From assembly GCF_054482595.1 (NCBI RefSeq), contig NZ_CM137008.1: a DNA stretch of 64,000 bases, one strand, 5' to 3'. The position numbers and the translations under genes are program-made. Of the stretch, positions 1,737-1,807 are shown piece by piece. Positions within the stretch are counted from its first letter, which is position 1, and each line of letters starts with the position of its first letter. The notes beneath the pieces are model-generated. The model ran no database searches and was not told the origin of the DNA. It saw nothing but the letters and a program-made list of their open reading frames with translations.

Positions 1737-1807
1737 CCCTCTCCCACAGGGAGAGGGAGAAAATCACCCCGTGCACCATCGGTCCCCTCGCCCCTTTGGG
1801 GAGAGGG
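1737..1807. terminator. Two GC-rich hairpins between convergent phnP and yjdP; candidate bidirectional terminator or intergenic repeat
   Basis: Palindromes ccctctccc-acag-gggagaggg (1737-1757) and cccctc..ttt..gagggg (1784-1807) in the 143-bp convergent intergenic gap. Confidence 0.4.

Follow-up and report, generated by a model that had tools for sequence, protein, structure and literature searches.

The two GC-rich hairpins located between the convergent genes phnP and yjdP in this Escherichia coli window (the whole 64,000-nucleotide stretch of DNA that was analyzed) are read, with a probability of about 0.88, as two head-to-head inverted units of the BoxC repeat, also termed PIT, TMECO, or HPGQ, which fill nearly the whole 143-bp spacer, most likely have no dedicated role for phnP or yjdP, and act as structure-prone repeat DNA that destabilizes the spacer. 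The analysis establishes the family identity of the pair, its copy number, and the polymorphism of the locus. Both the repeat and the locus are already known and named, and the finding is an ordinary one.

Bases 1–4000 of the window are 100% identical to several complete E. coli genomes and are covered to at least 80% in 399 of 5426 genomes, non-O157:H7 strains among them. The gene order in this region is phnN-phnO-phnP, followed by the convergent yjdP and a gene for a hybrid histidine kinase. The spacer (1701–1843) is bounded by the end of phnP at 1700 on the + strand and the end of yjdP at 1844 on the − strand. Beside yjdP, the gene content of 2242–13659 fits the OI167 island of EHEC, which is termed EHEC-associated in the paper describing the island: an 812-aa hybrid histidine kinase encoded on the − strand, six genes on the + strand at 4560–10679, a 241-aa open reading frame on the − strand at 10676–11401, and then a 665-aa open reading frame.

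Both palindromes that the original prediction placed between phnP and yjdP are present, at 1737–1757 and 1785–1806. Hairpin 1, CCCTCTCCC-aca-GGGAGAGGG, has a perfect 9-bp stem (9/9 complementary), and hairpin 2, CCCTCgCCCC-ttt-GGGGaGAGGG, has a 10-bp stem with one G/A mismatch; the pairing cccctc/gagggg given for the second palindrome exists but is the outer part of this stem only. The interval of 1737–1807 assigned to the pair proved too narrow. A third G-block lies outside each hairpin (1725–1733 and 1811–1819 on the + strand), outer inverted arms of 21 nt each span 1725–1745 and 1799–1819, and conserved repeat flanks stretch the element to about 1707–1835. As a DNA fold, the 96-nt composite has a z score of −3.2 and outdoes all 200 shuffles.

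The two units follow the TMECO consensus, CCCTCNCCC-N3-6-GGGNGAGGG-N3-GGGNGAGGG (Holder et al. 2015, PMC4666352), with an exact match on the + strand at 1785–1819 and a match with one substitution on the − strand at 1757–1725. The + strand unit reads CCCTCGCCCC-TTT-GGGGAGAGGG-TTA-GGGTGAGGGG. It equals the published “type A mm” letter for letter, has the same sequence as K-12 TMECO nos 7, 11, and 15, and, as window 1785–1820, is identical to the parent of the control oligonucleotide used in the CD and NMR work of Holder et al. (2015, PMC4666352). The − strand unit, read from 1757 down to 1725, is CCCTCTCCC-TGT-GGGAGAGGG-CCG-GGATGAGGG; its third block, GGATGAGGG, carries GGA for GGG and by this single substitution misses the strict BoxC consensus. 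The second loop defines two unit types, TTA for type A and CCG for type B (PMC4666352), and the window contains one of each, TTA in the + unit and CCG in the − unit. Inverted pairs have been described at five K-12 sites, always with one type A and one type B unit (PMC4666352); all five sites, when retrieved, show this A+B pairing together with family-typical flanks, and the window pair, B(−) and A(+), has the same described arrangement.

The repeat has been named several times. BoxC, the first description of which is credited to Bachellier et al. in the 1990s, appears in Cozzuto et al. (2008) among the known E. coli repeat families, with a length of 56 bp and, after Bachellier, 32 copies. The name PIT, for potential intrastrand triplex element, is attributed to Hoyne and Maher (2000, 2002), and the same repeat is called TMECO triplex motifs by Holder et al. 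(2015, PMC4666352) and HPG1/HPG2 G-quadruplex-hairpin motifs by Kaplan et al. (2016, PMC5100583). The locus itself is catalogued in K-12: TMECO no. 22 lies at 4314285–4314320, within the yjdP-phnP gap (4314198–4314343), and the yjdP/phnP copy is HPGQ no. 51 in Table 1 of Kaplan et al. (2016, PMC5100583). The copy at this locus is tabulated in two papers; the element should be masked or annotated as BoxC and not as a new motif or a terminator. The likeness to BoxC/PIT/TMECO/HPG thus comprises the consensus, the TTA and CCG loops, the intergenic location, the multiple copies, the inverted A+B pairing, and the catalogued K-12 locus. A scan of 1400–2300 against Rfam 15 (E ≤ 10) gave no family at the gathering threshold; the best matches were eukaryotic miRNA models, at 15–21 bits against thresholds of 55–137 and with E ≥ 0.5.

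The sequences that surround the units are also those of the family (Table 1). At other loci, the sequence found here at 1707–1724 is the spacer between tail-to-tail BoxC pairs, and TTTTCT precedes the type B units at hrpB-mrcB, ygfF-gcvP, alx-sstT, and lldD-trmL of K-12. On the type A side, GTGCTCGATCGGTC and GCACAATCGGTC stand before the units at hrpB-mrcB and at the K-12 phnP locus. When 1771–1836 is aligned to the fepB-entC and ygfF-gcvP copies, the alignment reaches query position 62, and the type A half is identical to the fepB-entC type A copy at 54 of 60 positions. The type B half (1707–1766) shows 56/59 identity to the hrpB-mrcB type B copy, versus 41/52 to the K-12 allele of its own locus.

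Table 1. Features of the phnP-yjdP spacer and its flanking genes, in window coordinates.
Feature	Coordinates	Strand	Remarks
phnP coding sequence	942–1700	+	Closes the phn operon, with its stop codon at 1698–1700; open reading frame, annotated phnP in identical E. coli records
Outer flank of type B unit, conserved, AGAATGTGCGCGCTGATG	1707–1724		56/59 identity of 1707–1766 to hrpB-mrcB copy
BoxC/TMECO unit, type B (second loop CCG), holding hairpin 1	1725–1757	−	One substitution from consensus
TTTTCT, 5′ flank typical of type B (AGAAAA on +)	1758–1763	−	Shared with K-12 loci
Nonrepeat joint TCACCCC between the head-to-head units	1764–1770		Absent from the K-12 pairs
GTGCACCATCGGTC, 5′ flank typical of type A	1771–1784	+	Matches GTGCTCGATCGGTC and GCACAATCGGTC
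BoxC/TMECO unit, type A mm (second loop TTA), holding hairpin 2	1785–1820	+	Exact consensus match
3′ flank of type A unit, CGATGCCAGCACCCG	1821–1835	+	Partly common to other type A copies
yjdP coding sequence	1844–2173	−	Convergent with phnP; open reading frame, annotated “DDRRRQL repeat protein YjdP”

A 115-nt query over the element matched at 93,858 places, with a median of 18 per genome; 5425 of the 5426 complete E. coli genomes have a match, and almost all of these matches are chromosomal. The motif is multicopy and therefore not unique in the genome, which the original prediction had named as an outcome that would speak against it. Its reading as a distinct intergenic repeat family is borne out by the known BoxC/PIT/TMECO repeat, which recurs in multiple copies across virtually all E. 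coli genomes. The two copies at phnP-yjdP, which lie between the stop codons of these genes, are the only BoxC copies in the 64-kb window. Six other BoxC copies were inspected, and all six are intergenic.

Outside E. coli, a scan of genome contigs for the exact core pattern gave at least 120 loci, those listed all being from metagenome-assembled genomes (MAGs), a result that shows breadth and not an unbiased taxonomic census. Among the matches listed, the core is multicopy in MAGs of at least six phyla, and other Escherichia species are absent. The core-bearing MAGs among these matches include Hydrogenophaga, Burkholderiaceae, Ottowia, Azonexus, Hyphomicrobiaceae, Pelagibius, Competibacteraceae, and Sedimenticola, as well as Anaerolineales, Dehalococcoidia, Planctomycetota, Melainabacteria, and Moraniibacteriota. 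The core is kept almost letter for letter in MAGs of Proteobacteria, Chloroflexi, Planctomycetota, Melainabacteria, and CPR, and the flanks are lineage-specific. This breadth agrees with the report of the motif in “>260 prokaryotes” by Holder et al. (2015, PMC4666352). Inverted core pairs are also present in some core-bearing MAGs. In the Anaerolineales MAG JAUXWL01, the exact core is the center of a roughly 190-nt high-copy repeat with the flanks cttcccccgaaaggggaagggagtc ... aaaaacgtcctcgcatgaataggcg; the repeat is found at many contig ends, where it breaks the assembly, and is MITE-like in carrying no open reading frame. A search for an IS or transposase beside the core in this MAG found none, only the approximately 190-nt repeat without an open reading frame.

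The spacer between phnP and yjdP is highly variable in length. Evenly spaced sampling of 5439 matching records, with representatives compared per allele, revealed at least seven length alleles: 146, 143, 95, 76, 42, 34, and 27 bp. The 146-bp allele, carried by about half of the sampled genomes, is K-12-like and contains a type A unit on the − strand and a truncated type B remnant. The 143-bp allele is that of the window, the 95-bp allele retains one shared hairpin with third blocks on both sides, and the shorter alleles of 42, 34, and 27 bp lack both hairpins. Deletion junctions are located at short direct repeats that are supplied by the G/C blocks; a 70-bp deletion, for example, lies between two copies of GAGGGGCGA. 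Such junctions fit slippage or misalignment. The shortest alleles could alternatively be ancestral empty sites and not deletions; the 27-bp allele still resembles the outer flank of the repeat. In E. coli MB64 (NZ_CP073929.1, 4330492–4330821), the annotation gives yjdP as a pseudogene interrupted by an internal stop, and the strain also has a 42-bp deletion allele of the spacer.

Variability is reported to be greater around TMECO sites than at control intergenic sites, and partial deletions have been described at palindromic TMECO pairs (Holder et al. 2015, PMC4666352). The variability of the spacer fits this published link of TMECO motifs to local instability, which the locus illustrates clearly through its seven length alleles and one rare, rearranged arrangement. 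The link is correlative. Instability would arise when the repeated G/C blocks slip or misalign, and perhaps also through inversion or gene conversion between copies.

The rearranged allele is that of the window, the central junction of which is found in 22 of 5426 genomes. It differs from the K-12 phnP-yjdP copy in both orientation and spacing: in the window, B(−) precedes A(+) and 27 nt separate the cores, whereas in K-12, A(−) is accompanied by a truncated B(+) remnant across a gap of roughly 48 nt. Against the flipped K-12 core, the alignment of the window core scores 89, versus 33 in the syntenic orientation, and the best match of the type A unit at the K-12 phnP-yjdP locus is on the opposite strand. 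Because of the flipped-core scores and the identities of the type B half to the hrpB-mrcB copy and to the K-12 allele, the two alleles may differ by inversion, by an insertion in the opposite orientation, or by gene conversion.

The same observations could describe a MITE-like mobile element, in which the A+B pair with its terminal inverted G-blocks would be a nonautonomous transposon moved by a putative enzyme, and the window and K-12 alleles would be independent insertions or an inversion. The element resembles MITEs and ERIC (IRU) sequences as a small noncoding repeat with terminal inverted repeats (here the 21-nt outer arms) and with presence/absence polymorphism at the locus, and the better alignment of the flipped core, the opposite-strand match of the type A unit, the many copies of the core in MAGs of at least six phyla among the matches listed, and the roughly 190-nt Anaerolineales repeat that is centered on the core all speak for it. 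However, the locus shows no target-site duplication, no IS or transposase related to the element is known, and the short alleles are explained by microhomology deletions. Units occur singly as well as in pairs, with 13 of 23 being single in K-12 (PMC4666352). ERIC, with its 127 bp, is unrelated in sequence. In the survey by Holder et al. (2015, PMC4666352), TMECO sites were not associated with transposons, phages, or plasmids, and across 56 strains most copies occupied conserved loci; moreover, the same core is embedded in flanks that differ between lineages, unlike one spreading element. A mobile element is thus unlikely. It is distinctly improbable, if conceivable, that the conservation of a 33–36-nt core in at least six phyla reflects recognition by a widely distributed candidate protein, similar to REP and RAYT, and that the A+B pair is a cassette open to inversion or conversion, the window allele resembling a K-12 allele turned around between the inverted G-blocks at its ends and having a type B half very close to that of hrpB-mrcB. 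The conservation may instead be due to convergence driven by structure or to neutral spread.

Similar to REP (PU) and BIME sequences, the window element consists of short GC-rich imperfect palindromes that are intergenic, often in inverted pairs, and often between convergent genes or at operon ends, but the window hairpins have no sequence similarity to REP. REP elements have the RAYT transposase, gyrase, and, in BIMEs, IHF as partners. BoxC is not known to have a partner protein, such as RAYT, gyrase, or IHF, a mobilizing enzyme, or an mRNA-stabilizing effect. The statement that the hairpins are not REP elements stands: with the consensus GCC(G/T)GATGNCG(G/A)CG...CTTATC(C/A)GGCCTAC, no REP half-site is found in 1701–1843, and half-sites occur elsewhere in the window, only at 15028, 21837–22076, and 32554–32631. 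The full-length consensus has no match in the window with up to three mismatches. The half-site clusters (CTTATCMGGCCTAC) at 21837–22076 and 32554–32631 alternate in orientation and look like BIME arrays. Beside a REP pair, at 32659–32680, the hairpin CCTTCTCCC-ataa-GGGAGCGGG resembles a BoxC stem with two mismatches and without a third block; it could be what is left of a degenerated BoxC copy, or a stem-loop with no relation to BoxC.

The original prediction also raised a bidirectional terminator, a role that was not supported here. As a terminator or 3′-end stabilizer for the convergent mRNAs, the element would place hairpins in the phnP mRNA (+) and the yjdP mRNA (−) that stop RNA polymerase or block 3′ exonucleases. 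Its location is suitable, since it lies between convergent genes, 24–37 nt past the stop codon of phnP and 24 nt past that of yjdP, and, similar to intrinsic (Rho-independent) terminators, the GC-rich stem-loops follow just after the stop codons. The RNA hairpins are stable, with −71.6 kcal/mol for the whole spacer and z = −2.7 on the + strand, although the significance of the − strand fold is weak (z = −1.1). REP elements are generally known to stabilize upstream mRNA, which is a precedent for the stabilizer. For HPG1, 6 of 16 copies lie between convergent genes, and a terminator role has been suggested (Kaplan et al. 2016, PMC5100583). Unlike intrinsic terminators, however, the stems of the window have no T/U run after them on either strand (1–3 T in the 10 nt following the stems), and a consensus scan calls no terminator site in 1701–1843 on either strand. 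Hoyne and Maher (2002), as reported by Holder et al. (2015, PMC4666352), observed neither promoter nor terminator activity for the family, and RNA polymerase was unaffected. The 27–42-bp alleles, which account for roughly a quarter of the evenly sampled genomes, are natural spacers without either hairpin.

Since the spacer of some natural strains measures only 27, 34, or 42 bp and has neither hairpin, the phnP-yjdP position can do without the element. A terminator or stabilizer is decidedly unlikely, and the most likely reading is that the BoxC pair has no regulatory role for phnP or yjdP; a modest effect at the RNA level, such as post-transcriptional protection of 3′ ends by the RNA hairpins, is possible as a conjecture. 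Within the supplements of Adams et al. (2021) that the search covered, no 3′-end record for yjdP or phnP was found, and a full-text literature search returned no Term-seq paper for yjdP. In the literature after 2016, a search found no function assigned to the BoxC family.

The structural potential of the BoxC pair follows from the composition of its units, each of which comprises a pyrimidine block, a complementary purine block, and a second purine block. Given these three blocks, a single strand of the unit could fold as a hairpin, a purine-motif intrastrand triplex, or a G-quadruplex, and the inverted pair could form a long hairpin or a cruciform. By the purine-motif triad rules (G.G:C, A.A:T, and T.A:T in three 9-nt blocks), each unit scores 8 of 9: the + unit has one Watson–Crick mismatch, the hallmark of the “mm” type, and the − unit has 9/9 Watson–Crick pairs and one third-strand mismatch. 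The DNA hairpin energies are −8.6 and −9.7 kcal/mol, the latter for the − unit. Four-run G-quadruplex motifs are found at 1798–1820 on the + strand and 1725–1745 on the − strand. Isolated type A and type B oligonucleotides form an intrastrand triplex in vitro, but neither duplex DNA nor DMS footprinting in vivo gave signs of a stable triplex (Holder et al. 2015, PMC4666352); for this reason, any non-B structures may be no more than transient, if they arise at all.

A regulatory use of such structures was modeled by Kaplan et al. (2016, PMC5100583), in which a switch among G-quadruplex, hairpin, and duplex in the G-rich strand would modulate transcription of neighboring genes. Both units of the window contain a canonical four-run motif, oligonucleotides of this kind show ion-dependent hairpin/G-quadruplex switching by CD, and the K-12 copy at phnP-yjdP is among those tabulated (PMC5100583). 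Even so, this switch is very unlikely at the present locus: the evidence for it is from single strands in vitro, neither a functional class nor a fixed distance to neighboring genes was found (PMC4666352), the element is downstream of both genes and outside promoters, and strains without the element exist.

Mutually unrelated GC-rich palindromes that arose by chance, for which the GC-rich context speaks and nothing more, can be dismissed: dinucleotide shuffles of the window give an expected 0.00 motif matches, the units are identical to catalogued copies of the repeat, and thousands of copies are present across E. coli genomes.

Mechanical open reading frames run through the repeat at 1697–1816 and 1710–1811 on the + strand and at 1609–1971 on the − strand, with translations such as ...PSPTGRGRKSP... 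and ...PHPNPLPKGARGP.... A reading of the spacer as small open reading frames (39 aa at 1697–1816 and 33 aa at 1710–1811) was dropped, as these are mere translations of the repeat. BoxC copies can in this way yield spurious “hypothetical proteins” in automatic annotation.
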